Source: a virus. From it: a DNA stretch of 64,000 bases. The stretch lies in IMG/VR virus record IMGVR_UViG_3300045988_025287, positions 32,001 through 96,000 of that record, one strand, 5' to 3'. The translations under genes were made by a program, and so were the position numbers. The notes beneath the pieces were generated by a model that saw only the letters and a program-made list of their open reading frames with translations, made no database searches and was not told the DNA's origin. This document shows positions 660-56,948 of the stretch, in pieces. Position 1 is the stretch's first letter, and each line of letters begins with the position of its first letter.

Positions 660-1264
660 ATTAGTACGCTTTATATTTAAAAGGGGCGCGTTTCACAACG
701 AACCCCTTCCATTCAAATGATATTTATATGTTTTTTAACAGAAATTGGGGAGATTTCTGTAGCTGTAACCTAGTTTCTTGAGCTAGGGATTTATACGCCG
801 TATATTTAGTACTCCCCACCTGGGCTAACGTTTACCCCAGACTACCTGTTCACGATAACTACCTATCCAACAAGTTTCCTTCTGCTATTATAGTTTCAAA
901 GGACTGGTATTTTAAATTAGTAGTCCCTGTAGGTATCGATCCCACTCCTCCCGGGTTCATGCTACTCTTACTTTTACATAAGCCTTCTCAGTGAGAAGTT
1001 GTAGTCTGGACTATTTCATGACCATATTCTACTAGAACTTAGGCCTCTCCCGTATAGTCTCTACGCCATTTATCAGCAGATGCTGAATTTAGTAAGCCAT
1101 CGCCAAAGTAATATCGCTATTACGAGGTTTCTGTTTGTTAGAGAGATTTTTCAATACATATTTCTACGTAAAGCTCCTACCTAAAAGAGCCGGGCGCGCT
1201 AGCCAGTACGCAAAGGGACAGTGCACGTGGATATTCTTACCCTCCACGTAAGGGTTCTGATGGT
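660..1264 (-). ncRNA. ORF-free G+C-rich island A: structured RNA with group I intron-like core motifs
   Basis: No credible ORF. Minus-strand reading gives GUAGAGACUAUAC (plus 1052-1064) and AAAUAGUCCAG (1006-1016), resembling the group I R/S elements. A second pair lies at 917-929 and 837-848. 7-bp helix 1225-1231/1243-1249. GCGA-capped hairpin 1108-1123. Weak hairpin plus U-run at 681-708. Confidence 0.35.
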
Positions 1265-3701: not shown

Positions 3702-4056
3702 TTAAATCTATCTTTTTGTAATACTTACATTCTTCTAAAGTAGAATAATCATTAAATGTATTAGGTCTTACTATATTGATTATAGCCTTGATATCTTCCC
3801 AATTTCTATCATTTACACAATTATCATAAACAGATTGTAGTTTGTGTATCTCCTGTTTACTATATTTACGTATAGGAGCATATGCAACAAAATTATATCT
3901 ATCTATTGTAAGTAACTCTATACTAGTAGGAATAATCTCAAACTTATTATATGGTAAGTCTCTCTTCTTTAACTTATTCCACAACTTAGTAAATATGTTA
4001 TATTCCTTCCAACATAATATAGTGCCAGGTCTTACTATTGTTGTTTTAATCTTCAT
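3673..4056 (-). CDS. Hypothetical protein (127 aa)
   Basis: Intact ORF with overlapping start and stop in the same-strand gene chain. Confidence 0.65.
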   Translation of the reverse strand: MKIKTTIVRPGTILCWKEYNIFTKLWNKLKKRDLPYNKFEIIPTSIELLTIDRYNFVAYAPIRKYSKQEIHKLQSVYDNCVNDRNWEDIKAIINIVRPNTFNDYSTLEECKYYKKIDLNEESSEYIY

Positions 4057-11989: not shown

Positions 11990-12493
11990 TAAGTTAATGC
12001 AGTAAATATTACTGCATCTTTAAGGTGAGAATCCTTAACAATCCTGTGGGGCTTATATCTCGTGTTTATAGTAGTGGTGTCACGAGTATTAGTGCAGACG
12101 TTAAAATCAGGAACAACTATATTAGACGGCAATATTACCTTCTTCCAGTCGCAAATGTCATATAGTTTAATATAGCCAAGTTCGTTCGTCCTTAGATTTA
12201 TGGTATTAGCCATTTGTTTATTTAATCATCGTTTCATTCTTAATTGTACAGATTGATTAATTAAGCATAACAGTAAGCGTACTGTTGTCAGTATATTTAT
12301 ATGTGAATATAGATATACTGATTGCACTCATTAAGGTAGCCTTCATGTGGCGAGTGTGTTAAGTAATAGGTCTAAAGAATCTTCCAGTTTGTACCTATGA
12401 AAACTAATACCTTTAACCGCCAGCTCACGCGGTATATAAGACAGGATTGCCGGACCCGCAGGTGTAACGAGATAAATACCTGCATTTTTTATT
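11990..12493 (+). ncRNA. ORF-free G+C-rich island E
   Basis: Starts with an 8-bp hairpin ATGCAGTA/TACTGCAT. Contains GTGCAGACGTTAAAATCA (12092-12109), shared with island F. Ends in the terminator at 12458-12493. The only ORF (minus strand, 11986..12213) is doubtful. Confidence 0.35.
12458..12493 (+). terminator. Rho-independent terminator
   Basis: Stem GCAGGT/ACCTGC (12458-12463/12478-12483), 14-nt loop, then ATTTTTTATT. Confidence 0.65.
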
Positions 12494-13821: not shown

Positions 13822-14211
13822 GACTAGACCTTCTTTTTAGTTAATATTAGAGTCTAGTATACTCAGTCTGTGAAGATAGAGTATACGTCCTCAGAAAATG
13901 ACAAACATGTGGGGCGGGAGTAAATAAGTAAAACTAAGCAGTAGTATTATATATCAGTAAGGATACTACGCCGAATCTGATTGTTTTGTTTATTTATAGT
14001 CGTGCGGACGTTAAAATCATGTACTCCAATAAGATTTAGTTTGACAGCTATTTCTGCTTACGAGTTAAAACTATAGTGAGAGTCATAGTAAGTAACGATT
14101 GTAGTCGTTTATCTTTGTCTTATAACAAATGCTATAAACTAAGTTGGCACTAACTTAATTAAATCCTGAGTGCCCAGGCGTCATTATTAACAATTTAAAT
14201 TTTTTAGAAAC
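13822..14211. ncRNA. ORF-free G+C-rich island F
   Basis: Starts with a 7-bp helix ACTAGAC/GTCTAGT. Contains GTGCGGACGTTAAAATCA (14002-14019), 17/18 identical to island E. Confidence 0.35.
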
Positions 14212-15421: not shown

Positions 15422-15460
15422 TTTAAATTGTTAGTAAAATGGTGGATTCAGTCAACCCAA

Positions 15461-15610
15461 AGAACTGTTTAAGACTAGAACCCTAATGGAAATTGTCAAT
15501 CAAGAGTACAATGGACTATACAACGGTCAACCACATTATATGTAGGTCAGGAGAAGGCAGGGAGTCTCCTGTTGAATAAGAAGTACAAATAGACAGGAAC
15601 AGTTCTTTTT
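15461..15610 (+). ncRNA. Structured element G, closed by a 9-bp long-range helix plus U-run
   Basis: AGAACTGTT (15461-15469) pairs with AACAGTTCT (15598-15606), followed by TTTTT. Internal 7-bp hairpin CAGGAGA/TCTCCTG (15548-15554/15565-15571). Confidence 0.4.
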
Positions 15611-16403: not shown

Positions 16404-17048
16404 CTAAATCAAAACAAATAAAAGAGGTTCCAAGCTTAGAATCTTTGAATCAATAGCTTAGTATGTGAGTCGGAAATAGTTCTTTTGAACTCTAGGGCCT
16501 GAGGCATACAAGGACCTGAATTAACAGGTCTCATACAGAATTTTAAATCAGTTATGGGGAACTACCGTGAACTACTGATCATAAGTCTGAGATCGCGACA
16601 ATAAGATTGTCCTCTAGAAATAGAGAAACGCTCTAGTCGTGACATCAAGTTTAGACTGAATAATATGAATCTTTGAATCGTTTAAAGTATCTATACTTTA
16701 ACTATTATTCGTGTATTATCAAGATCAGTATAAGAGAACTAACCATTCTCAAGACCATAGGGTATATGACTTTGGTCGGTCATATACCCACAATAGAGTA
16801 GGTATAATACCGAACTGTAAAAAGAATTGACTGTTAGGTCTATTTATGCCTTCAGGTGACCGCGGGGCAGTACCGCGCACATCCACTAAAAAAATATAAT
16901 AAGGGTGTGAAATAGTATTGAACCGTTGAAACAGAATAGAATAGGTCAATAAGCAGATAACTGGCAATACAAGTTATGTAACGGACTATACTGGTATCGC
17001 AGCGTGATAACAGAGTCCAACGGCTAAGCTAATGTCGTAGAAAGCTGG
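16404..17048 (+). ncRNA. ORF-free G+C-rich island H
   Basis: About 645 nt. 13-nt exact direct repeat GAATCTTTGAATC at 16439-16451 and 16667-16679. GC hairpin CGCGG-GGCAGTA-CCGCG near 16862-16880. Ends at a tRNA-like module. Confidence 0.35.
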
Positions 17049-26880: not shown

Positions 26881-26951
26881 TCTCATGTAGCTCAGTGGTA
26901 GAGCCGCTACTATGTAGTGTGAACGCGTTGGTTCGAGTCCAACCATGAGAT
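26881..26951 (+). ncRNA. tRNA-like element with aberrant anticodon arm (loop contains CUA)
   Basis: Good acceptor TCTCATG/CATGAGA, D arm GCTC-AGTGGTA-GAGC and T arm GTTGG-TTCGAGT-CCAAC. The anticodon region CGCTA-CTATG-TAGTG gives a 5-nt loop, or a 7-nt loop ACUAUGU with C at position 33. Confidence 0.5.
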
Positions 26952-30347: not shown

Positions 30348-31188
30348 AAATAAAGCTGTTCTGGATAAATCCCGTTAAACGGTGAAAACCCGATGGGGCA
30401 ACGCCGTACCAAGTTTATATAGAAATATATAAATAGTGTCTAACGACTAGTAGTGAAACTACCGCTATTAAAGCTATGTTAATAATTCTACCACGAAAGC
30501 GGGAAATATAAACTTATATATTTATTATACGTTCCATATATAGTAATAATTAAATATTCTTATATGGAACTATTAATAGACGGAAAGAAAATAAATATTA
30601 GAGATAAAAATAGAATAAAAGAAGAAAATAATACTATTCTATTCAGATGTACTATATGTGGTAAATATCTACCTATTAGTGAGTTTGAACTTCGATGGAA
30701 TAATAGTAAAACTGAAAAAAATAATGTAAGATCACAATGTAAACATTGTCGTACAGAGGAAAGTAGGCTATACCACTATTATAGAAGAAGGAAATATACT
30801 GAACAAGTAGTAAAAGAAAAAATGTTACATTATGATAAACTAAAACATGATTTAGAATATCATAATAAAATAGTATTATATAGATATGCTAAGAACCATT
30901 CAAAACGATGTAATATTGAATTTAATATTACTCCTAATGATATAATAATTCCTAAAGAATGTCCAATTCTTAAGCATGAGTTTATTTTAAATGATAAACA
31001 ATATACTTATTCTATTGATCGAATTGACAATAGTAAAGGATATATACCTGGAAATATTGCTGTTATTTCAAGATTAGCAAATATAATGAAAAATTGTGCT
31101 AACTTTGAACAATTAATATTATTTTCTGAAAATATAAAAGATTATATTAAGAAATAGTCTAAACTACACGTATAAGATGAAGGTGTAG
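30348..31188 (+). mobile_element. Group I intron (IA-like) carrying an HNH homing endonuclease ORF in P8
   Basis: Hand model. P1 30341-30347/30358-30364. P3 30371-30375/30499-30503. J3/4 UAA. P4 30379-30384/30402-30407, with A-rich J4/5 and J5/4. P5 CCC-GAUG-GGG. P6 8 bp with a GAAA loop (30414-30433). P7 GACUA 30445-30449 / UAGUC 31155-31159. P9 31164-31169/31183-31188. The 3' end is uncertain (31188 or 31202). Confidence 0.65.
30564..31157 (+). CDS. HNH homing endonuclease (intron-encoded)
   Basis: Intact 197-aa ORF. Cys clusters CTICGK...CKHC. IDRIDNSKGYIPGNIAVISRLAN is HNH-like. Its TAG stop coincides with the P7 3' strand. Confidence 0.85.
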   Translation: MELLIDGKKINIRDKNRIKEENNTILFRCTICGKYLPISEFELRWNNSKTEKNNVRSQCKHCRTEESRLYHYYRRRKYTEQVVKEKMLHYDKLKHDLEYHNKIVLYRYAKNHSKRCNIEFNITPNDIIIPKECPILKHEFILNDKQYTYSIDRIDNSKGYIPGNIAVISRLANIMKNCANFEQLILFSENIKDYIKK

Positions 31189-37713: not shown

Positions 37714-37756
37714 TAAAAAGCCTACTGATTTAATAGTCAGTAGGCTTATCTTTTTA
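37714..37756. terminator. Bidirectional rho-independent terminator at the convergence point
   Basis: 10-bp stem AGCCTACTGA/TCAGTAGGCT (37719-37728/37737-37746), flanked by AAAAA on the left and TATCTTTTTATT on the right. Confidence 0.8.
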
Positions 37757-37795: not shown

Positions 37796-40700
37796 TTAGA
37801 AGTTCATTAATTGATTCTGTAGGTAATTACGTTTTGATTTAGGATCTTGAGCTTCTACAATACTCTTAAACGGCGTTACTTTGATAATATTCTTAAGTAT
37901 TACAGGCATACCTTTATATACTCCTCTATCTATTATAGTAAATGGAGTTCTATCTCCAATATATGAAGCAGGATTAATCAAGTTTATGAAACTACTAATA
38001 TTATCAAACCAATTGAAAGCTGCTGTTGGAGATTTAATTAAAGCCATAAATTCAAAAGGATTATACATAGTACGGAATTCAAATGCTGAACGCATAGCTA
38101 AATAAGTTATTGACTATGTTAACCAAGTATCATAATCATCATCACCATCAACTACACTAGCTATAACGAGAGCTACTGCTGTAGATGCAGTAATAAGGAC
38201 TAATTCATTTAATACTCTTCTAACAGCATATTGTTCATACTCTTGCATATTATTATAATCAGCTAATAACTATTTAATAGCAAAATGTCTATTAGCTATA
38301 ATATTCTTCAAGAATCTACCTGTAGATCTATAGTAACCTTCCTCTATAGTTTGTAAATCTAAATTATACTGTTTAGGTTTGAATCTATCGTGTAATGCAG
38401 AAATCATAAAGTTACGATGTAATACTAAGTATGAAGCCATCGCATTGGCATGTACAGCAGCTTTATCAACTTCTCGGATAGTACCATCTATTCGTCTACT
38501 TATAATTTCAATTCTATTACGTACATCATTTAATAGTCTATCTGTAATTAAAGATTTATATTTATCATCTACTACTACATCTCCATTTGGAAGTTCTATG
38601 TACGCATCATATAACGTAGTAGTAAGCTATTTAAATTCTACTGCTCCTTTCTTTCTATCATTAGAGTAGAATTTATCTATATACTATTGCTTTGACATAA
38701 AACCTTCATTATCAACTAGACGATAATTATGATAGATACTTAATAAAGTATGACTTTTAACAGTGTAATCAGACTACGTATATCCAGCAAACCAAAAATT
38801 TTGATTAATAGAACGTAATACCTAACTCTAGTCTAATCTATCAAATAACTCTTTGTTATCTTTTACTACCTAATTAAGCATAAGTAAATAAGGTAATCTA
38901 CCTTTAGGATTAGGATTACCTATGTTCTACATCATGTTAGGTAGTTCTCTAGCAAATTCAGATCTAGCAAAGTTTAAATCTTCTAAATCAAAATACCTAC
39001 CCATCTTAGCTTCTAAAGTAGTATAAGTAGCATCAGTAAAGAAAGAAGTACCTATAGACCATAAGTTACCAGATAGGTTTACTTTAGTAACAAATCCTCT
39101 AACAATATCTAAGGCTTTACCAAAGTTAATATCATAACCTAATACGTTACCCTCAATAGGAGTTTTATTTCTACCATACATCAATCTATCTACTAACAAC
39201 TATGACTATTTATATACATTAGTAGATCCAGGTCCTTTTAATTCTTTAGAGGTTCTTATAGATAACTATTTTAGTAAATTGAGCATTAATTCTACTTCAT
39301 CTTGTTTAGCTGACATATTTTTATAATTAGCAGCCATATTGTAGAACTGTACTACAGCAGATACAGCATCCGTAGATATACTATTTGTATCTTCTAAAGG
39401 AGTAATAAACCTAGTAGGTATTACTTTAATAGGATCTCCATTAGGCATAGTAGAAAACTCTTTAACGAAATCTAAATCATCTTCTTTTGTTATAGCAAAA
39501 TCTTCTACAGCATATTTTAACTTATTTAATATTCCATCTTTACGATTCAATACCTACATAAACCTAGCTTCTATTTGTGGCATCATATTTTCATTACTAT
39601 TAGTGAGGAATGATATAAAACTCATAGCCTCATTCATTATATTAGTAATTTCATCATATAATTCCTTTACTTCAGGTTTATTCATTACTTCGTTATAAGC
39701 TTTACTATTATCATAATATTTCTTGTTAGGCTAAATAGCAGGTCCATTTTCATCAAATTCAGGATTGTACCACTCTGAAGATTCTAGTATTTTAGAATAT
39801 TTACTAGATGGTACTATCTCTGTATACTACTGAGCAAATTCAGGTAGTGGTCTAAGCTCTGTATAATATGAAGCTGGATGCATAAATCCTCTTACATCTT
39901 CATAATGATTATTATTAAACCATTCATTATATGCTTGGACGCCTGCATTTCTAGCCTATTCCATATCATGATAATACTATTCTGTATTTACTATTTCTGC
40001 AAAATTTGAGAATTTATCAGCTCCTTCTGTTTTTTGAGTAGCAGTATATGCATTTGCTATATCTTGATCTAACTATAATAAGCTTCTTTTCTCATCATCG
40101 CTTAATGAATTAATGTCAATCTTATTGGTATGAGGATCCTTATATAAATTTTGTAATTGTCTTCTCCTATTACGCAGTTTCTAATAAGTACTTTCGGGAT
40201 CTTTGTTAGCAGAATCAGATTCTAGGTTAGCTATTCTGTCATAGAAATCTTGAGTATACCTAGTTACAGTATTTCTTTGTTTCCATAACTATACTTCAGC
40301 GGTTTCACCTCCATATCTTTCTATTACTTTAGCTAAATCCTTTTCATACTTATCCTTATCAATATCATATTTAATATGTTTATTTACTTCTTCATGAAAA
40401 GCAGTTAATTCATCTGCTATTACTCTATCTATTCCAGTTTTTTCACTACCGTCTATATTAAATATATTAGATAGTAATCTTTTTTGTTTACGTAAAGATT
40501 CTAGCTATTTGTATTCTGCTTCTGTAAGTAGGTTTTCATACTATATACCGTTAATAGTCATAGATTGTGTAATACCATCTATCATACTTTGGATCTCTCT
40601 TTCAGCATCTCTAGTCTTCATAGACAGCATCTTATTTCTAAGAATATAATATTCAGCTTTGTATCTCCTTTGAGCTCTATCTGCATACCACTTAGTTAGT

Positions 40701-42472
40701 TCATCAAACCACTTCTTTTGTATATCTTCATTTTGCGGTAACACATACATGTTATTATTGTCTTTAGATATACCTAATTTTTCAGCTAATTTATCCATGA
40801 ACTATCTCTGGTCACGCTTTAATTGACCATTATTCAGTGGGGATACCTTATTACCAGAGTATGTACCATCGTCTAATTTTTCATATAATAGCTTCTATAC
40901 ATCATTACCGTATTTTTCTTTGGCTACACTTACTAATTTAACTAATTTAATACCAACTTCCATAGTTTCTCTATCTGTGGCATTTTTAGCATCATTAAGC
41001 AATTTGGCTATAATCTATTGCACAGCATTATTACTATTACTAGACATACCGAACCAATCCATGAACAAACTAGAATCATGTTTAGGATCATCTAGCCAGT
41101 TAATAGTATCTTGTATCATATTCTGTGGCATACCTAATTCTGTAAGATACTATTGTAATGCACTATAACCTTTAGATTTAAGTACATTTATAAACTTATT
41201 ATTAACATTGTCTATTTGTTGTGATAAGGTAGTAGCTAATTCTTTTATATAACTATAATCAGGTTTATCTTTGAGTATATCAGTAGTATCAAACAGATAC
41301 ATTATATCATCCATAAGAGGCTTATAGAAGCCAATATAATCATTAGATAACTATCTAATCTGTTTAGCACTAATATTCTTTGTAGGTTTACTTAAGAATT
41401 TAATACTATCGTTTATAGATTCATCAATATGCTATAAGAATTGATATATACCTTCCTCTGTTTCAGAATTAGCCAGTTGCTATATTGTAGTCTATAGTTG
41501 ATTCCACACTTTAGGATTCTTAACGGTGTATCTCTTAATAGAATTTAATCTGTCTTTTAAACCTTTCTATATCTTTTCATATAACTTAGTTACTTCGTTA
41601 ATTACTCTCATATCCTCTTGAGGTATTGGAGTAAAGTCTTCTGGATTATAAGTTACAGTTGACAATAATAACAATTCAGACATCAAAGGCTCACCATTTT
41701 TATCTATAGTTTTTATTGAAAGATTATTATTGAGATAATCTTCTAAATACTCACCTTCTTTCAATACATACATTGGAATACCTCGAACATTACTGATAGT
41801 ATCATCTATACTCTATTTCCACAATCTACTTTCATGTTCTTTTCCACCTCTACTGATATTCCTTTTAATAAAATCTTCAGTTGACAAATTTATGATTTTA
41901 GTAAAATCTTGAGGAAATAATTTTAATAAGGTGTGAGGAGAAGCAAATAGTACTTTATTCTATTTTTTTGCTTCTTCTTTAACTCTATTCCATTCATCTG
42001 TTATGAATTTTATATAATCTGGATGTTTTTCAGGATATATTAGATATTCGTTTCTTGCAATTTTGTATTCAGGTGTTCCTTTCTTAGTATTAGAATGCTA
42101 TTCTATCCATTTATCTCTTTTTGAATTAAATTCTACATCCCAGTCTATAAATTTATCTTTGAACTTACCTTTTTCAAAAGAATATGTTTTACCTATTGCA
42201 GGATGGCCGAATATAACATCTGTAGATTTAATCTAATTATTATACCAGTTTCTAAAACTGTTAGAATATATTACAGCTTTAGCTTTAATAGCAGCGTCTC
42301 TATCATTATTATATTGTTTAAGTAAATCCTAAAATAGTATAGAAGGCTCCCCATTTGGAGCCTTATCTATACCATGACCATTATTCAAATCCCAGACAGT
42401 ATATGCAACTTCTGGTACAACTCTTTCTAGTTCCTTCCATTCTGGAAGATTTTTATTTGGACATTTATACAT
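37796..42472 (-). CDS. Large virion-associated protein (1558 codons), 36 in-frame TAG
   Basis: ATG at 42470-42472 (TAA upstream in frame at 42491), TAA at 37796-37798. A codon-by-codon hand scan of the frame found only TAG interruptions. Last gene of the late operon. Function unknown; likely a cargo/ejection protein by position after the RNAP-like gene. Confidence 0.7.
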
Positions 42473-42483: not shown

Positions 42484-45400
42484 TTATAAATTACATATGA
42501 ATTTTCTTAACGCTTCTTCAAGTTTATCTTGAGTATTAACATTATCTCTTGCCATCTACTGTGCAAATTCATTTAAATAGGTCTGTCTTTCATCAGCTGT
42601 TAAATCATCTAACGTATCTAATACTTCAGATATTCTTTTATTACCTTGGTCATACAAGGCCATTAAATCTACACCAGTAAGTTCCTTTACCGTAGATTTT
42701 ATGTTATCTACAGTTTCATCCTCTCTGAATGTATTTTCATATACATCGTTTTCAGTATCATTCTCATCTGCTTCTTCAAGTACAACACCTTCAACACTAT
42801 CGTCAGTATCGTCTTGTTCGTACTCAAATATTCTATCCTGCTCAGCTATAGCGTAATTCATACCAGAATATGATGGTAATTCTCCAATGTGATGCATATA
42901 CGCTTTATCTTGCTCAAAGTAAGTTCTTTCTACTTCATCAGTCATATCAGATAATGCATCAAGATTATTCAAAGCTTCAAAATAATCCCATTCATTTTCC
43001 TTATTGAATTCAAATTGAGTTGATAAACCGTATTCTACGATAGTATGACCTTTATAGCTGTATCCTTTTTTGGATATCAAACCATATATAGGAGTATATA
43101 AAATTCTACCAGTAAGTTTACCTTTCCATGTTCTTTCTGGTTTATCAATATAACCTATTAATCTATATACATGCCAATTAGCAGGTTCAAAACCTAAACT
43201 GTCTTTTATCTTAACATAAGGAGGGAATATTGGATATTTTATATCATCTACTGTTACCCAGTTTAATGGTTTAATAACAGCAGCCTACATATCAGTTCTC
43301 TATCCAAATATAATATTTGGCATAACTGCATCTTTATTAAGGCTTACAGATCTTAATGGAGCTTGATATTTACCACCATACATGTCTACAGGTCTTACAA
43401 GCTTATCATTCTACCAATTATTCAAGAATAAATCCTCAATGTCATTATAAGATTTATCTGCATTATTAACCATCTGATCTAATTTACCTTGAATGAATTG
43501 AGTATAACCTATATTAATCCTTTCGCTATTAGGTAGGTACTGAAAGAACGCATTCATTACTGTATTATCTCCAGATGTGTAGAAAGAGTATACGGCTAAA
43601 TCTCTGAACAATCTCTTAACTGAAGGTTCGGGATCATCTAATAACTATCTCCAATAGTTGATAAGATTATTTGCTTGTGCCTAATCTGCATTTAACTATT
43701 CTGATCTATCAATAAAGTCTAATCCTTCCTTATTAATATTAGGTATTAAGTAGTTAACGAAATCATTAGCTATAGTACCATCATTATTTAGTAAGTGACT
43801 TAATCTAGGATTACCCTTTAGTACTTCCTACTTAAATCTATACAGTCTATTAGGTATAGAATTACGTCCTTGGAACATAGTATTTAAGTCTATATTGTTA
43901 TCCTTAACATATTGATTAAAGAATTGACTCTTTATCTAAGCTTCCATACCATTTATTACAGCGCTAAGTAATTTAGAATCAGCATTAGCGGCTCTACCTA
44001 CTAATGATAAAGCTATATGTTTTTGATTAGCAAATTGATCAGTATTACGTAGTAATAAGTTTCTAAATATAGATGAACCCAAAGGTATACTATTTTCTGT
44101 TTTTGTACGAATGAATGTTTCATTAAAGAATCTAGTAACCTCACCTTTAGCGAATTTACTATTTTCTTCCATGTCTAACATACCTTTATAATATATATCT
44201 TGCTCAGCAAAAGTTTTACCAGTCTTCTTAGTATCAATCTTTGAGAATTTAACAAGATTAGCTAAATCGTCTGCATAAGGTTTAAGAGCTAACCAAGCGT
44301 GGTATATTCTTACTTGTTCTTCATTAAAGTTTTTAGAATCTTCTGGATTAATCTTTAATAACTATCTTGTTCTTGATGTTACTTCTCCTTTATCGTCAAT
44401 ATAAGTTCTAAATAGATCTTGATATTCTGAAGCTTTAGTTTTATTTTTTCTGTTTATATATTCGTACTTTCTACGTAACTTTTTAGTAGGATCATATTTA
44501 TCTAATACTTTTTCAATAGCTTCTTTTTCAAGTTGGGAAGGAGTCTTAGTTCTATCAATACCGTACTTACCTTTAGTCTTAAGTACTTCATTAGCCATCT
44601 CTACTAAGATAGGTTGTCTAACAAAATAGAATGTTTGAGCGCCTTTACCCGTACGTAATAAGAATGACACCATATTATATGTCCAAGCATTAACATTAAG
44701 CTTAACAATGTAAGGATCTTTAGCTATATCTACGAACGCATTAATCATAGCAGATAACCAGTCTAATATGCGACCTCCTTTAGGATTACCTATTGTAGGA
44801 TAGTCATATATTCGTCCAACATCTTCTATCTATAAAGTTCCTGTAAATTCATTGCTCTACATTTTAATACCTACTAACTAAGTAAGGATATGATGAGCGT
44901 TATTCAACGCAAAAGGACCAATACCAGCTTTACCGCCAGTATATTCCGCCTTTCTATCTTCTTGGTATCTAGGAGTATATACTTCAAATGGTTCTGGATG
45001 ATATGAACTAGTGCCTTCAATATCTTTAAGTATTCCCTTAACTGTATCAGTAGCATCATCAATAGAACCTTTTAACATAGCTGAATTATCCTTAGTAAGA
45101 AGAACTTTGATATACATTTTAATAATGTCATTCTTATAAGCACTGGCTACATCTTCTCTAGTTAATGCACCGCCGTGAGTTATAATTCCCCCGTTTTTGT
45201 TAAAGGAATATCGAGCTACATATAGTTTATCAATATCGAAGTCAGAACCTGTAAGCTTAGTAAATCCTTCAGGAAGCATAATAGTATCACCCATAATCTC
45301 AGGGAATACATCTACGAATCTTAGTGCGGATATTGATGCAATAGACTGTGTAGGAATACGATAACCAATTCCGGTAGCATCTGCCCTCTATCCTATGATA

Positions 45401-48400
45401 TTATGATCTAATAACCATTTTCTAGCTTGTTTAAATGTCATCTTACTGTAGTTAGGTATCATATGTTTAAATAGATTTATACTTACTACAGAGTCCATAG
45501 AACCATCCTTATCATTAATCATGAGTAATGGTTTTCCATCATTGATCATATCTTCTGTAATAACATTCTAGCTAGTAGCTTCGAGTCCAAATGCAGATCT
45601 TTGAATGAAAGCTCCACCAGGCATATGAACATCAATAACTAGTTTATTAATCATAGATATAAATCTACTTTCTAACCATTTATTATCAGATAAAGCAGAC
45701 AAAGGTATTACAAATGCATTATTCTTAGTTTTAAGACCAGATAATACATTATCATTAGCGTCAGATTCTCTAGCGTCACGCTCTAACATATTACCTAACG
45801 CTGTAACATTTATATTACCGTCTACAAACAATTCATCTACTATATCCTATCTACCCATATTAGATAAAGTATTCAATGCTCCCATTACTGTATCATTGAT
45901 TTCTCTACCTGTTACTTGAGAACCGTCTGGACCATATAAATCATCCTTACGTAAATTAGATAAGTTTACTTTTAAGAACTATGTACCAGCCATCTGTTCC
46001 GGATGAGTATGAGGATTAGTCTCTAACTGCTGTCTGATATATTTAAACTTCTACCTATATGTTACGAGTTTACTCAAATCAGTAATAGTATTACCCTATC
46101 CGCTTTCTGCCCAGTCTACTATAGAAGCGGATAATACAGTCTAACCGTCTTTAAGTTCTATTTCACTATCTTTAGCCTTTCTATAGTATGCAGTAGGAGA
46201 TTCTGAACCAGCTTTAACTGCAGAATCAAACATAGCCATATCAATAGGATCATTAGGATCTACCATTCTGTCATATAAAGCTTTAATATCTCCAGTAGCT
46301 ACAGATTTAAATAACGGGAATAAAGCCATCTTATTAAAGTAAGGTATACCTAATCCATTTCTAAATCTGGTACCGAATGCTATATACTTCATAGCATTTA
46401 ATATAACTTTATTAGCTTCTGCATATAACTTAGGATCAGATTCCCATTTATCTGCAGTATCAGGATCAGTCAATACTTCAAATGCTCGTTTAATGTCAGC
46501 ATTCCATACACCACGCATTCTAAGTAAATCTCTAGTCATATTAGGACTTATATATACAGCTGCATCAGCCACATTAACTCCTTTCTTATAACCAGCTACA
46601 GCTACTTTAGCTGCTTGTTTAGCAATTTTAGTTTCTTCAGGGTAGGTATTTTCTATATCACGTATGCTAAGATCTTTTACCTCATTCCAAGCTTCTTCTC
46701 CTAACATTTCCTATATAGTTTCTTTTATATTTGCCCTATAGAACAAACCTTCATACTCATGGTATTGTTTATCCATGATTTCGTGATCTTTAAGCTCTGT
46801 AACTACATATTCATCACGCATTGGATCATTAAAGAAGTCTAATCTATTATTCAAACCAGTTGATGTCAAAGAACCTAAACGTTTGATTTTGTCAATAGAT
46901 ACGTCTGTTATACCCTCTCTATCATACTTTACTTTGTAATACGCAGGTGAACCACTAAATAGCTTTTCTACTTCTTGAATAGATATTATACTATTCATCA
47001 CATAGTCAGATATCATATCAAATACTGCATATGCTTCCGCATTAGCACTATCCACACTCTAATATCTAGCTGATCTTTCTGTTACTACATTATCATCAAG
47101 TAATACATTACGTATACTCCATATATTACCTTGATCATTCATAGTAATTAAACCAAGATCTCTAGCATATTCTAATTCTTTCTTTACTCTACGATTAATT
47201 ACTCCAGCTAAGAAAGCCTTTTGTGTTTCTGGAGAAGTATTAAAGAAATAGTCTTTAGCTAATTGTAAACACTCTTTAGCTGATTTGGTAGGATCATTAA
47301 AGTTAACAAAACCTTTATTAGTATATATACCGGTCAAGAATAAGAATCTAGCTCCATTGCCTTCCAAAGTTACAGTGTGCTTAACTCCATCTTTATCTTT
47401 ATAATCATATTTATTAGGAGTATGGAAGTTTTTAATACGTCTAGATGGTTCGATCCAATCATTATTTATAGTACCATCATCGTTATAATGTAACCCAGTC
47501 TCTGGATTATAATGATTAGGATCATCATCTATCTATCTTAAGCACAACTCTATTTGGTTTAGTTCATCGTAACAATAACCTAATAGATAGTCCATAACTT
47601 GTTCGCCATACTGAACAAAAGTTTGACCATTATTATTATTGAATCTAATAGGTTCGTGTGGTAATGTTATTCCTTTAATGAAATGATATGTTTTCTTATC
47701 TGCTACTGTAGGGAATATTATTCTATTATTAAATACAGCTGTCATTTTAGCTATATAGTCCTCTCTATCAGTAATACCGTGGTAATCTCTACCCTTATCT
47801 CCAGTAGTAGTATCCTTAAAGTTAATAAGGGTTTCCATTGATAGATTTCTATTACCTCCTCTAACTGCCTGCAATATAATAGAATGTTCATTATAAACTA
47901 CAGATTCTAATTCCTAGAATACAGTAGGATCTGATACTATCTCATTAAGTCTATCTTTAGCAAAATTATTCTGTGATACCATATAATAAGAATTACCATC
48001 AGGACCATAGCTACTCAAACTATTATCTGTAGCATGTGTAAATGCATAATAATTAGCTAACTCTTTAACGTAACCTATATTATTCCATACCTATGTAGGA
48101 TCAACAGTTACTTCATTCACTTTAATTTCTTTAATAGTACTATCATTATTTATAGCATTTTTAATTGCTTCAAGTACACTTACTATTTTCGGAATGCCAC
48201 CGAAATTAACAGTTGAACTGGAGAACTCGCTGATAAGAGTAAATGCATCTGATTTAGGATTACCATATCTACCAGATAATAACATTTTGTCTATGGTAGG
48301 TACATCAATACCGATACCTATTACATTAAACATGTTAACTAAATACTTCTTAAGCATTTTCTAGTTAGATGTTTCGTGCAAATCAATATTTCTATCTCCT

Positions 48401-51400
48401 ATCTTAAGTATACCTTTATTGTTTCTAAAGGCAGTTATAACACTATTAAAATTCTTAATTACAGTATCAAGAGCTTTTTTAGATCCTTCTTCGGCTATTA
48501 TTACGCCTTCTTTATCGTATTTAAATAATCCAGCATTAGTAAATAATGCTTGAGACCATACTTTAGGGTAAGTAGCTGCCTTAACATCGACAGTGTTGTC
48601 TACGAGTTCATGCTTAATAAAACCAGTCTCTGGATCTTTACTTATCTTAGCAGTTACATAATTGTTTATATCACAGGTAACCACTGTCTCTATTTTGGTA
48701 AGCATAGCTTCAGCATCAGCAGCCTTAACTAAATCTTCTTTCTGATTAGAATCTTTAATCAGTCTGTTAAGTTTAAATAATAAAGCAGAATGAAAAGCAC
48801 TACCATTTTGAGCATAAGTAGCTACTTTATCAACTATATTAGCTATAGTACGACACCCGGACAAATCTTTAAGTATATTGTCCCATGCAGTTTTAGCATC
48901 AACAAAATTAGCAAAATGAGTAATAGGATCTATCTTCATAGACATGGAGCCGTCTGGGCTAATTTCATATAGAGGTATAGTTTGGAAGAAGAACTTAACC
49001 TCTGCAGGAGCATTATCCTTAATGGATATATTCATACCTTCTACTGTATGCTATCCTATATTAACTCTTTCCGCTCCCTCTTCTATATCACTTATAGTTT
49101 CATCCTCATTACGATCTATAGCTCTAATACCTAGTTGTTTTAATCTAGTAGCTATAGTTGGCATAAATACAGTCTCATATTTCTCAAGAATCTCATCCAT
49201 TACAGGAGAAGGATAAGTTCTAGCTTGCGCTTCTATAATAAGCTTAAGCCTTTCAAATTGTTGATTATCCTCAGACAATGCTGAATATTCAATATTAGGC
49301 ACTGCAGTTTGTCCATTTACTCTAAAGAATGCATATGTGAGAGACTTGATTATATTATCAAATTGATTGTATTGAGTAATTGTTTTTAACTCATAACCAG
49401 CTACTTCTAGATTAGGACCAGATGTACCATATATTTGTCTAAATCTATTTACATTCTCTTCGTTAGGCTTAATTCCATAGAACTTTCCCCTATTAATATC
49501 AGAATATATCTTAGCTAATGCATATTGACCAGTTCTAGCCCACAGCTTAATAAAATCTAAAATCCTTCTAAACCAATTCTTAGTATCAAAAGCATAGCTT
49601 CCAGCTTCATTTAACATAAAGTCTCTAAATTGATCTGCTAAAGCCTCTTCTATTTGAGAATCCGTCATTTGAGGATTCTTTTTTCTCATTCTATTATATA
49701 TTCTTTCTCTTCTTTTATTATCTATCAAGAGTAAAGAAACTCTATGCCATGCTTCATGATACTCTGTACCTACAGGGGCAAAATTACTAATTAATACAGA
49801 ATCTTCTATTACTCTACCTACTACAGCTGTACCAGCTTCTGTAACATCTATTATAGTAGGAATAATCTGAGGAGATGTTCCAAAAGTAGAACTTAACCAT
49901 TCTTTGGCTTGTTCTGGATCTATTCTTTCATTTACCCATAGAGTATTGTCTTCCTATACTTCTACCTCCATATTAGGGCCTCGTTTCTTCCCATCTAATA
50001 TAGCAAATATATCTGCCATATTCACAGAAGTCTACTTACCACTTTCATCTGGTAGAGTAAATACTTTAGTTTTAATAGGATCTTCGTATTCTTTCTCTAC
50101 CTTTTGTTGAGCTTGCTACTGTATCTTTTCAGCAGCTTTATCTGCTAACATTACATCATCAACATATATATTAGAATCCCATAACTCATCAGCTATATCA
50201 GTAAGTAATATACCTTGTTTGATATACCATCCTAAAGTACTCATACCGTTAGGATGTTTACTGTCGATAGTTTTACGACCATTACTTCCTGGAATTATAC
50301 CAAATTCACTCTAATCTAACTCTATTAAACCAGGGATAATAGTAAGCTTATCTATGTTGCTATTCTTTAAGAACGCAGCAACTGACTTAAATCTAGGATC
50401 TGTTACCTGTGATTGTAAATCTCCTCCTAAGTAATAAGTATTAAGTGCTTGTTCATCTATATTCCAATGGAAATTAGACATTATATAATTTTTAGCTTGT
50501 TGTCTAATATCCGGTTGACTAACTAAGTCACTTATACTATAGCTAGTATTACCTATTACTAAGTTGCCATTATCATTTACAAAAAATTGTTTTCTTTGTT
50601 TGGCTTGAATCTGTTGGGGAGTAAATCTGGTATCATTAGGATTTACAGCAGTATGAGGACCAAAGTTTACTATAAAATCTAATATATCAATAGGTCTAAT
50701 ATTAGTCTTAACTCCTTTAGCATCAGTATAGAATTGATCGTTACTAGTAACTAAATCTAATATCAGATCCGCTATTTGAGGTTTATCTGCAAATGTCTAA
50801 TAGTTCAATTTAACTAGCTTAGTATCGTATTCTCCATCTAATCTAGGAACTTTTAATACCCACATGGGTTGACCAAGACTACCACCTTTTACAGATAATA
50901 TAGTGTTTCTTAATCTTATTACTTCATTGTTTATAGGACCAGTAGTTATACCTATCTACGTATTATCTGGGGTTATCTCAAATGGATCTTTTATAGTTAA
51001 CCATGCTGAATCTAGTAAGCTTCTATTCTTAGGGCTGTTATCTGGATTTTTTTCATTTCTAAATCTTCCAGTAGTAGCTCTAAGAGCTGTAGGAACTACC
51101 TCAAGGTTTGGATTCTTTTTAGTTTGTTCATACAGTTCTATAATCTTATTTCTCAATCTGACCAGATTATCTACAATCTTAGTCTATTTTTCAAACGGTA
51201 GCCTATTAAACGGGCTATATCTACCTCTAAGACCACCTTCAACAGTTTTAATAGCTCCGGCGTATTTTTTACCTTTGTAATCAAATATAGCATAAATAGC
51301 AGGTTCTACTTTTCCGTCTTTATTAGTATAATCGTGTACTTCAAAGTGAACCCCGTTGTTCATTACTTCAGGTATAAAGTCAGGTTTACTACTTACTAAC

Positions 51401-54400
51401 GATAAATCATCATCATTAAGGTAGTCTTCCATTCCTTGATATCTCTTAGATATTCTAATGTAATTACCATTAGCATCTCTAGAACCTTCACTTAATCTGT
51501 AATTAATTTCATGAGAATATGGGTCTTCATCTTTATCATATGTTAATTCCTATGTATTTACAGTAGTGGGCTATTCTACTGGTATCTATTCCTGCTGAGG
51601 CTGCTGTGACTGTTGCAAACTACTAGCTGCTTCTGCTCCTAGCCAATCACCCATTATACTAGCTAATGTTGGTAATTCTGCTTGAGTTGGCTGTTCTTGT
51701 GTAGGTGTAGCAGGTACTTCTGGAATAGCATCTGCACTCTTAGTAGGAGTATCGTCATTCTGCTTTACTACTTTCTATCTTTCTTCTGATTTTATTTCCT
51801 CTAACTTTTCTGCAGCCTATTGCTCCTCCTATCTAGCTTGCTTCATTTCTTCAAGTCTAGCAGGAGCCTAATCTTTTATACGTTGCGCTATTTTACTGTG
51901 ACTCTAAATAATAAACTTTGACAATTCTACTTGAGAGTTAAGAGTGTCTGCTAGTCTATTAGCTCTACTAGAATTACCATTAGTATACAGCTCTTCTTCT
52001 AACTACATTCTAGTATCTCTCATATCTTCCCATAGATTCTTTAATCCGTCTTCAGAATTCTCCATAAACTTAGATGCGCTATACTCCTGATAATTCTACC
52101 TATTTGGATATAGGTAAGAATAAATATCTTTCATAGCTTGACCTGCATTAGCATACGATTTACCAGCTTTGTATTTAGCACTAGGTACAAGAACAACATC
52201 TCCTTTAGAGTTCCTTTCTTGTTCAAAGTATTTATTACGTATTGCACTAGCGTTCTATCTTGCCTCTGTTATATCTTCTGGTTCAGTTGCTACATCTTCA
52301 GCAGTATACTACGCTTTACTTTCTGCAGCAATGGTAGGTTCAGGATTGGTAACTTCAGGTGTTGTTGTAACCTCTACAGGTTCTGGAGTTATTTCTTCAC
52401 TATCTATTACTTCATCCTCTTGCTTCTTTCCAGAGTATAAATCATCCAACTCCTATACAAAAGTATCTTCCTGATCTTCCACATCTAGCCACTTATTGAT
52501 TTTTGCTATAGCACCTTTAGGACTATTCATAGCATCTCTCTCAGCTTTAGCTCTTTCAAAATCAAGATTTGCTATAATTTCTTTTTCTTGTAAGTCCTTA
52601 AGAGTCTGATGAAGGTTAGGAACATTTAATTGTTCCTCTGTGATACCTAAGTCTTCTGTTTCTTTACGCAGCTATTGATAAACATCATCTATCTGTTGTT
52701 TATCTTTATTTAACAAATGTTTAAATTTGATAACATCAGACTTAGAAGTACGTATGCCCGTATTTTTCTCTAATTCAGACAGCTTGTTACCATTACTGGT
52801 ATAATCAGTTATGAGTTGATCATATAACTCAGTCTGTGATTTTAATCTGATTAAATTACGAATAGCTACTTCTTGATCAGGGGTTACATCAGGCTTAATA
52901 GAAGATATATACTGGGATATTTCAGGACTATACATTAACTAGTCTACCTCTGATGTTATATTAGCTCTATTATTAGCAGCTTCAGTAAGTAACGCTTCGT
53001 GGTGTTCTTTTAATGCTACAAATACATCATACTCTTCTGTTCTAGGATCTATTCCTGCTTTCATTGCTTGACTCATAGTGACAGGAGAAGTATACATATT
53101 TCTAATGAGTTCTGCCCTCTTTCTCTCGTTCTATATATCCTGTATATCTAATCCTTCTGTTCTAGATACTATATTTTCAGCTTCATCAAAAGAACTCATA
53201 AGGTTATCATATTTACCAGTTCTAATGAAACTACTATACATGGCATTCTTTCTAACTCTATCTTTAGCATCCATCTATTCTGCATACAAAGCAGATACAA
53301 ATTGGTCAGTAGGTAATTGATTATTTATTTGTATTGCTGCAGATGGAGCACCGTATACAGTAGTCATTAAACCTCCCAACAATGCACCGCCTTTAAAGTT
53401 TTCCATGAATTCCTAATCATTTGAATACACAGGATCCCACGGAGTAATAGCTGCAAATACAGCACGAGCTCCAGTACCAATGTTACGTATAAAACTCTTT
53501 ACTAGATTTGGATCAGCATCAAAATTATTGTCTATATATCTCTATCCCTTAATGTACTGAACACCTTCTTCAGCTCCTTCTAGTATACCATATACTAATA
53601 TACGACCACCTAAATCAGTAATGGCTCTACGTTTAGTTCTCATAGGTAATCTACCTACATTATCTAAGCCAAAAGAAGTTATATCGTCTATTCTATTAGA
53701 TAATTGCTCTTGCAATCCCTTCTTTAGTTTAGTACCTTTATCAGCTAAAGTCTTTAAACCTTTTACTTTTTTAGCCATAGAACCTATAGGTACTACTTCT
53801 ATTGCTTGTTGGGCTATATCACTAATCGATAAAGCCATGTTATCTATATATAGAGATCTCAAACCTTCTCTATTATCTAGCATAGCTTTATTAAACTTTC
53901 TATTATTTATTTTGATATCTCCAGAAAGTATACGGTCATATACATACTCATCATCATTAATTTGATCTGCGCTATAACCCTATTGAGCCATCTTAATCTT
54001 AGCATCAGCTAATACACTTTCGTCTACACCTAATTTCTTAGCTGTATTCTTTACTGACTGCTTGTAGTTCTAGAATACTTCAGCTTTAGACTCTCGATCT
54101 CTACTGTATAAATTAGATCCTATAGATATTAACGCAGCAACTCCTGCCACTAATGGATTACCAGCACTGGCAGCATAATAAGCAGATATAGTACCTAACA
54201 AAGAAGAACCGACAGAAGCAGCACTAGATCCTGCTAAACCCGGTAATTTGAATAACCAAGTGTCTATGTCAGAATAATCCATACCAGGCTTTTCTTTGTT
54301 CTTTCTATAATATTCTGAGGTTAACTTTTCATCAAATCTCTTAACTTTATCAGATTGTATTTCGGCATCTCTGAGAGAAATTATCCTCTTATTATAGATA

Positions 54401-54972
54401 TTATCATCTTTCATACTACCGTCAAGTCGAGTAATGGGATTGATTTCTTTATCTATTTCTATTAACGCGTTATCTAGATTGCCTTGTTTAAGACTACCTG
54501 TAATATAACTATTAAGATAGTTATTGTTAAATTTACCAGATATAGCAGTATCGTATGCAGATTTATTATTAACTTGCATTAATGATGCTTCCTACAGCTA
54601 TTGTTTTAATTGTTCATTAGTAGGATCCTAGCTTAACTATCTAGACAATTCTATTACTGCTCTACTAGAGTTTATATAATCTTTTAGGCTGATTAAGGTA
54701 TTATAATCCTAATCAGCCATCACATACTCTCCTAACTTAGCATCTCTTTCAGTTTGCGCTTTTGTTAAATTCCAATCATAGAATGCGTTAGAAGCCCAAT
54801 CTGTGAAACCATAATTGTCAAGTGCTTCTTCGTAATTAGCATCTGGATTAGCCATACGATGCATATACTCCTCAGTATTAATCTGAGGAGCTATCATAGC
54901 ATCATACATTGCTGTTCTTTGTCTAATACTATCTATTAATGATGTATCATATACTTTCTTTTTCTTTGCCAT
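42484..54972 (-). CDS. Giant protein (4162 codons) containing a virion RNA polymerase-like DFDID motif, about 60 in-frame TAG
   Basis: ATG at 54970-54972, TAA at 42484-42486. The hand scan of all 208 sequence lines in this frame found no TAA/TGA. GSDFDIDK at 45229-45243 resembles the catalytic DxDxD loop of crAss-like/N4-type virion RNAPs. Gly/Ala-rich hydrophobic segments near the N-terminus. Confidence 0.7.
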
Positions 54973-54974
54973 AT

Positions 54975-56948
54975 TTATCTGCCTAATAATTGTTGTGCTG
55001 ACGTCTGGTATTCATCTTTAGCTTGAGAAGATCCTCCAATACCACTAGAAGATCCTCCTTGCCATCTTTGATTTACTCTTTGCCAATACTCTGATGATGT
55101 ATATGAGTTAGGTAATGTTCTATAAGCATCTACTTCATAATATTCAACGCCATCTTGTCCTACTACTTCAGTTACTTTAGAAGCTCCAAATTGTTGCTTA
55201 AGAGCGCCTTTAGTAGTCTATCTGCCAAATGGCATAGAATAACTAGAAGCCATTTCACTAAACAACACAGGATAATTTACCCACATACCTGTTCCTAATG
55301 ATTCTTCAATTCTTTCTTTAGGTATTCTAAGTTTGCCGGATAAAGCCATACTTCCAGGCCCTGTCTTTACTACTTTATTATTTGGTATAAATTGAACTCC
55401 ACTTAATTGACCACTTTCTACTAACTCTCTAAACGGAAAACTAGTATCTCTTCCTATACCGGCATCTCTACGAGCTTTTCTACCAGGTCCTTCATTACCA
55501 GCAATCATACTAAATACTGTTTCCGGTAATAAGAATCCTTCTGTAGTATTAAATTGATATCCCTAATGTTTAATACCGTCACTATCTTGTATTTCTGTAG
55601 ATAATGCTCCAACACCCGTTAATAAGTCGTCTTTATCGAGTAATCCTACTGGCGCACTTACTTTATTAAGCGCAGCATTTACTCCTTTTAGATAAGATTT
55701 GGTACTAAATTCTTTACTATCCTAACTAGTTAACGGGGAGAAACCAGCTACTCTTTGGAATTCATCTCTTACTACATGCTTACTAGCTAAACTAACCATT
55801 TGATTCTATAACTGTTGAGCTCTATTACTAGCTGCTACTGCTGTTACATAGTCTTCATCGTTTCCAGTTTGTCTGTATCTAGTGCTGTATTCATTAGCTG
55901 CCTACACCATAGAACCATATTCATTCTGCATTCTATCTATATTGCGTAGACCTTTACGTGCATCGTCTGCAATTTTACTGTTAGGATACTTAGTGATCAA
56001 ACTAGATATATAGTCTCTATAACTATTAAACTTATTACCTATACCAGACATAGTGTTTCTAGTAATACTATCATTTAAAAAATCTAATCTAGTAGGATTA
56101 GGTCTTATTACTTCTTCATTACTTCCCCTGTTACTTTGTTTAGCCATAGCTAACCAATATGGGTCTACAGTATCTTGATTCACAATTCTATCTCTCTGTG
56201 AGTCAGCTATCATTCCTACGAATCTCTATCTAGCTAATTCAGCATCCCCTCCAGAAGCATCTAATGCTTCTCTATAATACTGTTGACCCTAAGGCGTACT
56301 AATTAAATCATTAAACTTAGCATCTGCAATATCGTACAATGTATCATAAGTAATGCCTACTCTATTGTATTTGACTCCATCTTTCCATACAGACCCTATT
56401 GAACTAGGTTTAAGATTACTAAAGTAAGGATTAGCTAGTTCATCTGCAGTCATATAACGTAATGGGGTAATTTGATCAAATACTCTTTTACTACCTAAAG
56501 TATCATAATTAGGTATATTTGCAGAATCCCAGCTTCGTTTATATCTTCCTTCTGCTTCCATTTTAGCTCTCATCTCAAGACCTGCCCTAAGATTATCAGC
56601 ACTTTCTTTGAGTAAACTTAAAGATCCGTAATCAGTATTACTAATTATAGATTGTAAATTAGCACGAAAACCTGCATCTTTTAAGGCATCTGGATTAGAA
56701 ACTATTTGATTAATAGCATCTTGTACATCTTGACGATTAATAGTTAAATTGTAGTAATTCTATGTGTCTATTGCAGATGGTGATCTAAATTCTCCAAACT
56801 TTTGTAACTAAGTATTAAACTATTGTGCAGCCTCATCTACAGCTTGCTTCTACGCTGCCCCTATTCTATATAATTCACCAAAGTTAATAGGTACATATGT
56901 ATTTAATATAGGAGCTTCCGCTGCTCTATCATATCTATTAGCCTACAT
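54975..56948 (-). CDS. Late protein (657 codons), 12 in-frame TAG including codon 2
   Basis: ATG at 56946-56948 with TAG at 56943. TAA at 54975-54977. Overlaps the upstream gene by 11 nt. Frame scanned by hand. Confidence 0.65.

Follow-up and report, generated by a model that had tools for sequence, protein, structure and literature searches.

The 64,000-nucleotide stretch of viral DNA analyzed here (the window), positions 32,001 to 96,000 of IMG/VR record IMGVR_UViG_3300045988_025287, carries on its minus strand a giant coding sequence (CDS) at 42484..54972. This is very probably one late gene of the Suoliviridae, a human-gut family of crAss-like phages (the 'delta' group), and it would specify a virion RNA polymerase (RNAP) polyprotein of about 472 kDa. 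The predicted product has 4,162 amino acids (aa), a mass of 472.5 kDa and a pI of 5.2, with 60 TAG codons read as glutamine and a terminal TAA. From its N- to its C-terminus it would consist of ~1,600 fast-evolving, mostly helical residues of cargo or ejection type, an HExxH...E module, the RNAP, and an acidic tail.

The polymerase module and its open frame

The RNAP module is defined by homology to phi14:2 gp66 and spans aa 1850-4039 (42856..49425, minus strand, as are all parts of the giant gene below). A phmmer search of aa 2250-4162 against PDB sequences returned phi14:2 gp66 as the sole match (6VR4, E=1.5e-38), with aligned stretches at residues 505-606, 812-904, 1123-1388 and 1491-1681 of the 6VR4 chain. 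In the catalytic region TGSDFDIDKLYV was paired with TGSDFDIDKMYV of gp66, and the GSDFDIDK of the giant protein equaled that of gp66 residue for residue. BLASTP aligned aa 2211-3461 with gp66 438-1659 (E=1e-43) and aa 2797-3617 with crAss001 gp50. A profile hidden Markov model (HMM) of five Suoliviridae giants extended these correspondences, with gp66 86-1812 matching aa ~1850-3638 and gp50 1032-2399 matching aa ~2766-4039. Both barrel regions, the Connector (1095-1238), bridge helix (1529-1559) and trigger loop (1598-1636) of gp66 (10.1101/2020.03.07.982082) all fall within the profile-aligned span. Isoleucine or valine as the catalytic motif's fourth residue is a family trait, and the activity of gp66 has been demonstrated in vitro (10.1101/2020.03.07.982082). 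What is known of virion presence and Mg-dependent RNA synthesis in this family comes from phi14:2 gp66 and crAss001 gp50.

A preliminary description of the window, made without database searches, had likened the DFDID motif to the catalytic loop of crAss-like virion RNAPs and had proposed alignment to phi14:2 gp66 and crAss001 proteins. The comparison upheld this view: aa ~1850-4040 are collinear with both phi14:2 gp66 and crAss001 gp50, and DFDID is in register. The motif GSDFDIDK was correctly recognized, and only its position needs amendment, since 45229-45243 covers DFDID alone (aa 3244-3248) and the octapeptide occupies 45226-45249. At the level of sequence, the assignment of the C-terminal ~2,200 residues to the two-barrel virion RNAPs of gp66 type holds. 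Past the end of the gp50 alignment lies the acidic C-terminal tail (aa 4040-4162; 42487..42855), and residues 4001-4100 include 30 Asp plus Glu.

The frame that encodes this protein had been described as continuous from the ATG at 54972 to the TAA at 42484 when TAG is read through. Translation of the window gave the same result, with 4,163 codons including the stop (TAA at 42484-42486), 60 in-frame TAGs, and no internal TAA or TGA. Base composition predicts ~264 TAA and TGA codons per frame, and none was found (P of none ~1e-115); the giant open frame is consequently not a product of chance. The remaining two minus-strand frames contain 200 and 589 such codons over the same 12.5 kb. The neighboring genes are close by: the stop of the upstream gene ends 2 nt ahead of the giant ATG, and the ATG of the downstream gene (42472) lies 11 nt past the giant TAA. 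A terminator scan detected no terminator-like sites above chance level inside the gene.

The HExxH module and the fused architecture

Ahead of the RNAP lies a gluzincin-like HExxH...E module (aa 1608-1832; 49477..50151) with homology to crAss001 gp47. It holds HEAWH at aa 1739-1743 (49744-49758) and the conserved downstream glutamate of the motif, Glu1776 (49645-49647). The module aligned with crAss001 gp47 2025-2291 (hhalign 98.5%; HMM E=4e-39) and, by hhalign, with the part of p-crAssphage gp45 that its record labels zincin (51%, E=1.5e-4), where HExxH, the Glu helix and the next helix were in register. The two histidines and the glutamate of HExxH, together with a glutamate ~33-36 residues downstream, are each 96% conserved among 156 aligned homologous domains and make up the gluzincin signature. 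HExxH has an equivalent in each of the five Suoliviridae giants, as well as in crAss001 gp47 (HEAFH at 2157 of 2,341 residues) and p-crAssphage gp45 (HESLH at 1743 of 1,957). HEAWH and E1776 are both within predicted helices. The profile of the 156 homologs gave no HMM match to p-crAssphage gp45 or phi14:2 gp65, and we do not claim the HEIMH of phi14:2 gp65 as the same module (hhalign 4%). The preliminary description had suggested looking for protease domains in the giant protein. We regard this region as a putative metalloprotease-like module whose zincin fold is not confirmed.

The N-terminal region is less readily classified. The preliminary description had pointed to Gly/Ala-rich hydrophobic stretches like those of ejection proteins, and these are indeed present and conserved in relatives. 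The one quoted there, a moderately hydrophobic Gly/Ala/Ser-rich segment at aa 243-287 (54112..54246; motif LFKLPGLxGSS...), contains the highest Kyte-Doolittle window of the protein (1.47 over 19 residues, aa 267-285), and its position is kept in cr114, cr109, cr118, cr56 and cr53. The Gly-rich hydrophobic segment at aa 525-548 (53329..53400; NFKGGALLGGLMT...) is kept across six Suoliviridae giants. Comparable N-proximal hydrophobic segments occur in crAss001 gp47, phi14:2 gp67 and p-crAssphage gp45. The first segment is a possible membrane-interacting or glycine-zipper-like element.

Further along, a low-complexity region (aa 850-1149; 51526..52425) comprises a charged helical stretch and two linkers, one acidic and rich in Pro/Thr, the other rich in Gln/Pro. 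With 33-38% identity to relatives, it is the least conserved part of the giant protein and also the most TAG-rich. It is followed by a conserved block of unassigned fold (aa 1150-1607; 50152..51525; 53-57% identity to cr114 and cr109), for which we found no Pfam, PHROG or PDB match and no hhalign link to gp47, gp67 or gp45. Searches at larger scale were equally negative: the whole giant protein matched no PHROGs family, Pfam searches of three tiles gave nothing below E=0.03 (all far under cut-offs), and a PDB sequence search with aa 1100-2300 returned chance matches only. When four N-terminal slices were compared by hhalign with gp47, gp67, gp45, gp65, gp49, gp46 and gp68, the HExxH slice alone matched. 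The part without assigned domains thus amounts to ~1,600 residues, and not the ~3000 that the preliminary description had supposed.

Fusion of the RNAP to other virion proteins proved to be a standard annotated feature of Suoliviridae. The orthologous giant is annotated as a single TAG-containing CDS in cr114_1 (KNV55_gp021, 4,272 aa), cr109_1 (KNV50_gp53, 4,328 aa), cr56_1 (KNV48_gp39, 4,461 aa), cr53_1 (KNV47_gp57, 4,645 aa) and cr118_1 (QOR58373, 4,946 aa), and in all five genomes a ~1,400-1,700-aa gene comes next. Homologs that divide the frame into several genes, the finding that would have told against a single gene, are not what these relatives show. The giant protein is collinear with the CDSs of cr114_1 and cr109_1 (58-60% identity, small gaps only). 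An exhaustive HMMER search with the TAG-free segment aa 1674-1973 recovered 1,006 cluster representatives, the best 150 of which were surveyed for architecture. At least 3,000 aa were present in 116 of these 150 and at least 4,000 aa in 83, and in 84 of the 116 the distance from HExxH to the DFDxD downstream of it is 1,256-1,816 aa (with a median of 1,460, compared with 1,505 in the giant gene). Relatives without recoding have this layout as well, in single unbroken proteins 4,000-6,500 aa long. Two representatives of ~3,000 aa (P0015 and P0017) carry HExxH at ~260-300 and DFDxD at ~1,700, and the long N-terminal part is absent from them.

The same block of functions is partitioned differently among lineages. 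It forms three genes in phi14:2 (gp67, gp66 and gp65) and three in crAss001, with gp47 on the opposite strand. In p-crAssphage, gp45 includes the zincin and is followed by gp44, a fusion of RNAP and downstream subunit of 4,070 aa. In Suoliviridae, the gp67/47-like part, the zincin and the RNAP share one gene, after which comes the downstream subunit. The layouts of p-crAssphage, P0015 and P0017 indicate that, depending on lineage, genes can be divided either after or before the HExxH module. To judge from these alignments, the assignment holds that the giant open reading frame (ORF) joins a gp67/gp47-type protein to the RNAP and leaves the gp65/gp49-type protein separate. The earlier suggestion of a fusion was consequently right in kind and too broad in extent: two proteins are joined rather than several, and the gp65/gp49-type protein is the next gene.

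The novelty implied for the fusion did not survive comparison, given that the architecture is widespread and published. Fused polyproteins of this kind were already described by Drobysheva et al., and RNAP genes of up to ~6,000 aa are noted in a review of the Crassvirales (PMC10136315). By its alignments the giant gene is a divergent copy of the published architecture, ~60% identical to the nearest published one. A polyprotein of gp67/gp47-type part, HExxH module and RNAP is thus the rule in Suoliviridae, and the present gene adds a divergent allele. The public names of the orthologous giants are 'hypothetical protein', 'DprA-like DNA recombination-mediator protein', 'DNA helicase', 'exonuclease V' and 'nuclear pore complex protein-like protein'; not one of the five records is labeled an RNA polymerase, yet DFDID is present in each. 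These records (our loci L001 14248-27066, L002 12210-25196, L006 8382-23222, L007 6788-20173 and L009 12771-26708) should read virion RNAP polyprotein.

TAG recoding and the split suppressor tRNA

All minus-strand genes at 37.8-63.7 kb need TAG readthrough to yield long ORFs (4-60 TAGs each). Nearly all of the plus-strand genes at 9.4-37.7 kb, together with the small minus-strand genes at 1.4-8.5 kb, are free of TAG, and the plus-strand block keeps to the standard code. The same giant gene has 69 in-frame TAGs in cr114_1 and 70 in cr109_1, each annotated as a single CDS. Glutamine is the commonest relative residue facing the TAGs of the giant gene: at its 60 TAG positions cr114_1 has Gln at 17 and TAG at 7 (24/60 together), the Gln background being 3.2%. 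TAG makes up 60 of the 194 Gln-equivalent codons. Five TAGs are found in the first 127 codons, and their density reaches 4-5 per 100 codons at aa 906-1149 (window 51526-52257), as opposed to ~1.2 in the polymerase module. Reassignment of TAG to glutamine in late genes of delta-group crAss-like phages has been published (PMC7886860, PMC10136315, 10.1101/2021.08.26.457843), and metaproteomic support for it in Suoliviridae is cited in PMC10136315. With TAGs in late genes, glutamine at the aligned positions and a phage tRNA(CUA) all present, the predicted reading of the giant gene and the late block by genetic code 15 (TAG to Gln) holds.

The amber-suppressor tRNA(CUA) is encoded on the minus strand at 920..1220 and is split into exon 1 (1220-1186), an intron of 228 nt that we assign to group I (1185-958) and exon 2 (957-920). 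Exon 1 ends in ...CCCGG CUCU and exon 2 resumes with AAC CCGGG. Splicing in silico produced a canonical 73-nt cloverleaf with anticodon CUA, and ARAGORN in intron mode likewise called an intron of 228 nt, at position 35; the insertion interrupts the anticodon between its positions 35 and 36. The gene escaped both ARAGORN run by default and the Rfam model for tRNA. The 228-nt insert opens with a P1 helix that has a U.G pair where the 5' splice site lies, closes with a G, and overlaps a match to the Rfam model Intron_gpI at 992-1195(-). At the syntenic site of cr53_1, upstream of the terminase gene, there is an intact tRNA(CTA), whose flanks are conserved in the window.

The split gene is not confined to the window. 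The same split tRNA(CUA) occurs, unannotated, in cr115_1 (NC_055898.1 ~30513-30867; L012 635-935), at a locus that is 99.4% identical. A homologous intron of 245 nt occupies the same position of the CUA tRNA of Lak megaphage B1 (MK250020.1 ~412033-412350; L011 367-684), a TAG-recoded Prevotella megaphage. Run without intron mode, ARAGORN found none of the three split tRNAs (window, cr115_1 and Lak-B1). 'Enigmatic' tRNA introns in Lak phages were reported by Devoto et al., and suppressors are often undetectable in recoded phages according to Yutin et al. and Borges et al. Split tRNA(CUA) genes may explain some of these 'missing' suppressors, and they bear on how and when recoded phages switch genetic code. 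Note that a tRNA-like gene at 26881-26951 on the plus strand (46 bits with the Rfam tRNA model) has a shortened anticodon arm and was typed by ARAGORN as His(atg) with an oddly placed anticodon. We rejected it as the suppressor given its aberrant anticodon arm and the real tRNA(CUA) at 920-1220.

Proposed function, genomic setting and named systems

We propose that the giant gene is translated only after the phage tRNA(CUA) decodes TAG as glutamine, a need that would limit the protein to the late phase. The product would then enter the cargo zone of the capsid together with its partners, the 657-aa protein encoded upstream and the 1,558-aa protein encoded downstream. It would leave through the tail in a partly unfolded state and reach the Bacteroidota host along with the DNA or before it, refolding there so that the polymerase can transcribe early genes. 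Packaging, ejection and polymerase activity are what phi14:2 and crAss001 lead us to expect; that the N-terminal part interacts with membranes, and that the protein is processed by proteolysis at all, are likewise conjectural. Gene boundaries directly before or after the HExxH module in other lineages mark a natural break, and this suits a maturation protease. We see cleavage of the polyprotein near the HExxH module as an even prospect. The module is also kept without fusion, in crAss001 gp47, and must therefore have a further role. With its 96% conserved catalytic-type residues and a position that always coincides with the point at which other families divide the gene, it makes it sharply testable whether the ejected polymerase is processed or activated.

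Several observations weigh against this reading. Expression, packaging and activity of the giant protein are predictions from sequence. Outside the HExxH region the first ~1,600 residues showed no homology to gp67, gp47 or gp45 detectable by hhalign, and equivalence with those proteins is consequently positional only; nor did these residues match any characterized ejection protein in PHROGs, Pfam or hhalign comparisons. The hydrophobicity of the Gly/Ala segments, at best the 1.47 given above, is under the threshold for a firm transmembrane assignment. The HExxH module had no Pfam or PDB sequence match, even with a profile, and Foldseek searches of the PDB with models of 300 aa and 152 aa gave no match at E<1. 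The two AlphaFold models (predicted local distance difference test scores of 77 and 82) disagree upstream of the HExxH helix, where one has strands and the other helices. Searches of BFVD returned other crAss giants, with IrrE-like, metallopeptidase and lethal-factor entries at probabilities of 0.16-0.28 only. Finally, the Intron_gpI match in the suppressor tRNA (21 bits, E=0.0028) is below the gathering score.

Three other explanations were weighed. If the TAGs were true stops, the region would break up into ~60 short ORFs, or represent a pseudogene in decay, or hold several genes that start internally. The longest piece of the giant frame that the standard code leaves unbroken is indeed only 300 codons (the longest TAG-free stretch around DFDID being ~170 aa), and standard gene callers do fragment the gene, as exemplified by the 741-aa database fragment P0001, identical over its 8% of the query. 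Such an explanation would nevertheless have to account for 12.5 kb free of TAA and TGA, for identity of 58-60% that continues unbroken across all TAG positions, for the uninterrupted non-recoded relatives, for the cognate tRNA(CUA), and for the proteomic support for TAG to Gln in Suoliviridae. These observations effectively refute the explanation, its pseudogene and split-gene versions included, and we give it hardly any credence. A much more serious contender, which we rate a little short of even, is that the polyprotein is never cleaved and is ejected as a single ~470-kDa polypeptide, like the N4-type virion RNAP (vRNAP) of ~3,500 residues. The targets of the HExxH module would then be the host envelope or peptidoglycan, host proteins, or a domain that blocks the polymerase cleft and has to be removed. 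Because the module ends separate proteins in crAss001 (gp47) and p-crAssphage (gp45), its conserved role must go beyond cutting a fusion junction. Drobysheva et al. suggest RNAP activation or peptidoglycan digestion, and giant uncleaved virion RNAPs occur in Schitoviridae. The same authors, however, expect fused forms to be cleaved, and boundaries right after HExxH (p-crAssphage gp45|gp44) or right before it (P0015 and P0017) suggest a domain break.

The remaining explanation concerns the N-terminal ~1,600 residues, which could be accessory domains of the polymerase, serving promoter recognition, DNA melting or as a scaffold for packing in the capsid, instead of an ejection or membrane module. 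We consider this a tentative option that falls clearly below an even prospect. Database names lend it some weight, with crAss001 gp47 annotated as 'putative RNA-polymerase subunit' and p-crAssphage gp45 as 'RNAP associated protein'; it also agrees with the fact that no firm transmembrane helix was predicted and that Bayfield et al. attributed the forming of the channel to gp45 and gp46 rather than gp47 (PMC10172136). The positional conservation of the Gly/Ala-rich segments in very divergent giants, and also in gp47 and gp67, is harder to reconcile with it, and neither PHROGs nor Pfam revealed a DNA- or RNA-binding domain. A late virion RNAP polyprotein with an N-terminal region of cargo or ejection type thus remains our preferred interpretation.

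The immediate neighbors of the giant gene conform to this interpretation. The next gene, credited with 1558 residues in the preliminary description, was recovered as such: it runs from the ATG at 42472 (37796..42472, minus strand), encodes 1,558 aa with 36 in-frame TAGs, and belongs to the RNAP-associated crAss001 gp49 / phi14:2 gp65 type (BLASTP E=6e-27 to gp49 and E=4e-14 to gp65), with 60% identity to cr114_1 gp020. Upstream, a cargo-type gene (54975..56948, minus strand; 657 aa from the first ATG; 12 TAGs) takes the site of the crAss001 cargo gene gp46 and is 59% identical to cr114_1 gp022 and 32% to cr53_1 gp58. The local gene order (1,411, 613, 657, 4,162 and 1,558 aa) is that of phi14:2 g071-g070-g069-g068-g067-g066-g065 with g067 and g066 merged. 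Past the downstream gene, where the convergent late (minus) and early/middle (plus) blocks meet, a strong bidirectional terminator-like hairpin at 37718..37747 (13-bp stem, followed by T-runs on both strands) likely ends the transcription unit that holds the giant gene. A sigma-70 promoter scan gave fewer sites than shuffled sequences, the sigma-70 model being wrong for Bacteroidota.

The genome itself appears mosaic. DNA identity to cr53_1 (Blohavirus) is 94-95% at 1-34 kb of the window and 85-92% at 56.75-62.96 kb, and the intervening ~37.3-56.75 kb had no near-DNA match to cr53_1. Two flanking virion genes have protein identities to cr53_1 and cr114_1 of 96/45 and 86/50%, as against 32/59% for the 657-aa gene, 33/60% for the giant and 28/60% for the 1,558-aa gene. 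Flanks like those of cr53_1 (1-37.2 kb and 56.75-63 kb, at 85-95% DNA identity) around a trio like that of cr114_1 (Aurodevirus, of a different subfamily from the Blohavirus cr53_1) imply that the three genes were swapped jointly, the other party being a lineage closer to Aurodevirus. The cargo/RNAP cassette would thus have been swapped into an otherwise cr53_1-like genome, a chimeric assembly being the alternative. Joint travel of the polymerase and its two partners fits physical interaction and possibly diversifying selection on ejected proteins. A broader scenario would combine late translation that depends on a tRNA(CUA) with a self-splicing group I intron in its anticodon loop, splicing as part of the code switch, an account of some 'missing suppressors', and a cassette exchangeable between subfamily-level lineages; taken together, we judge this less likely than not. 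On the plus strand of the early/middle block, several structured RNAs that score past the Rfam gathering thresholds lie clustered (RAGATH-6, RAGATH-7, two Hatchet ribozymes, RAGATH-9 and a permuted transfer-messenger RNA; 10625-10775, 10870-11092, 12016-12112, 13887-14022, 15448-15608 and 16826-17007).

Among named systems, the giants of other Suoliviridae share most with the window protein: one TAG-rich CDS, a spacing of ~1,500 aa between HEA[WF]H and the DFDID that follows it, the same flanking genes and a collinear alignment free of large gaps. They differ in sequence (~60% identity to cr114_1 and 33% to cr53_1, a genome with ~95% DNA identity elsewhere) and in length, the window protein being the shortest of the set at 4,162 aa. 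With phi14:2 gp66 it shares DFDID with Ile in fourth place, collinearity over 86-1812, and a late gene located beside genes of gp65 and gp67 type. However, gp66 is a free-standing protein of 2,180 aa, not the C-terminal half of one of 4,162 aa, identity is ~23%, phi14:2 has its sole HExxH (HEIMH) in gp65, which lies downstream of the RNAP, and the code is standard. The counterparts in crAss001 are gp47 2025-2291 for aa 1608-1832, gp50 1032-2399 for aa 2766-4039, and gp49 for the 1,558-aa gene, and mass spectrometry has found all three proteins in virions (PMC10172136). They are encoded by three genes, with gp47 on the strand opposite to gp50-gp49, and the N-terminal ~2,000 aa of gp47 are unlike the N-terminal 1,600 aa of the window protein in hhalign comparisons.

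In p-crAssphage (Carjivirus communis) the block also has three parts, with the HExxH module directly before the RNAP and a giant fused gene. The entry for gp45 reads 'RNAP associated protein fused to zincin protease'; gp44 (4,070 aa) is called 'RNAP catalytic subunit fused to unknown RNAP subunit'. There the split falls after the zincin, the RNAP is fused to the downstream subunit, and the code is standard. Further afield, the N4-like (Schitoviridae) vRNAP of ~3,500 aa and the RNAP of Thermus phage P23-45 are described as giant enzymes that are packed in the virion, ejected, and transcribe early genes, at times in fusion with other virion functions. The N4 vRNAP differs in being a T7-like single-subunit enzyme and not a two-barrel one; the P23-45 RNAP is two-barrel, yet fused to the tape measure protein. 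The likeness of these two systems to the giant protein is one of working principle, and we claim no sequence relationship.

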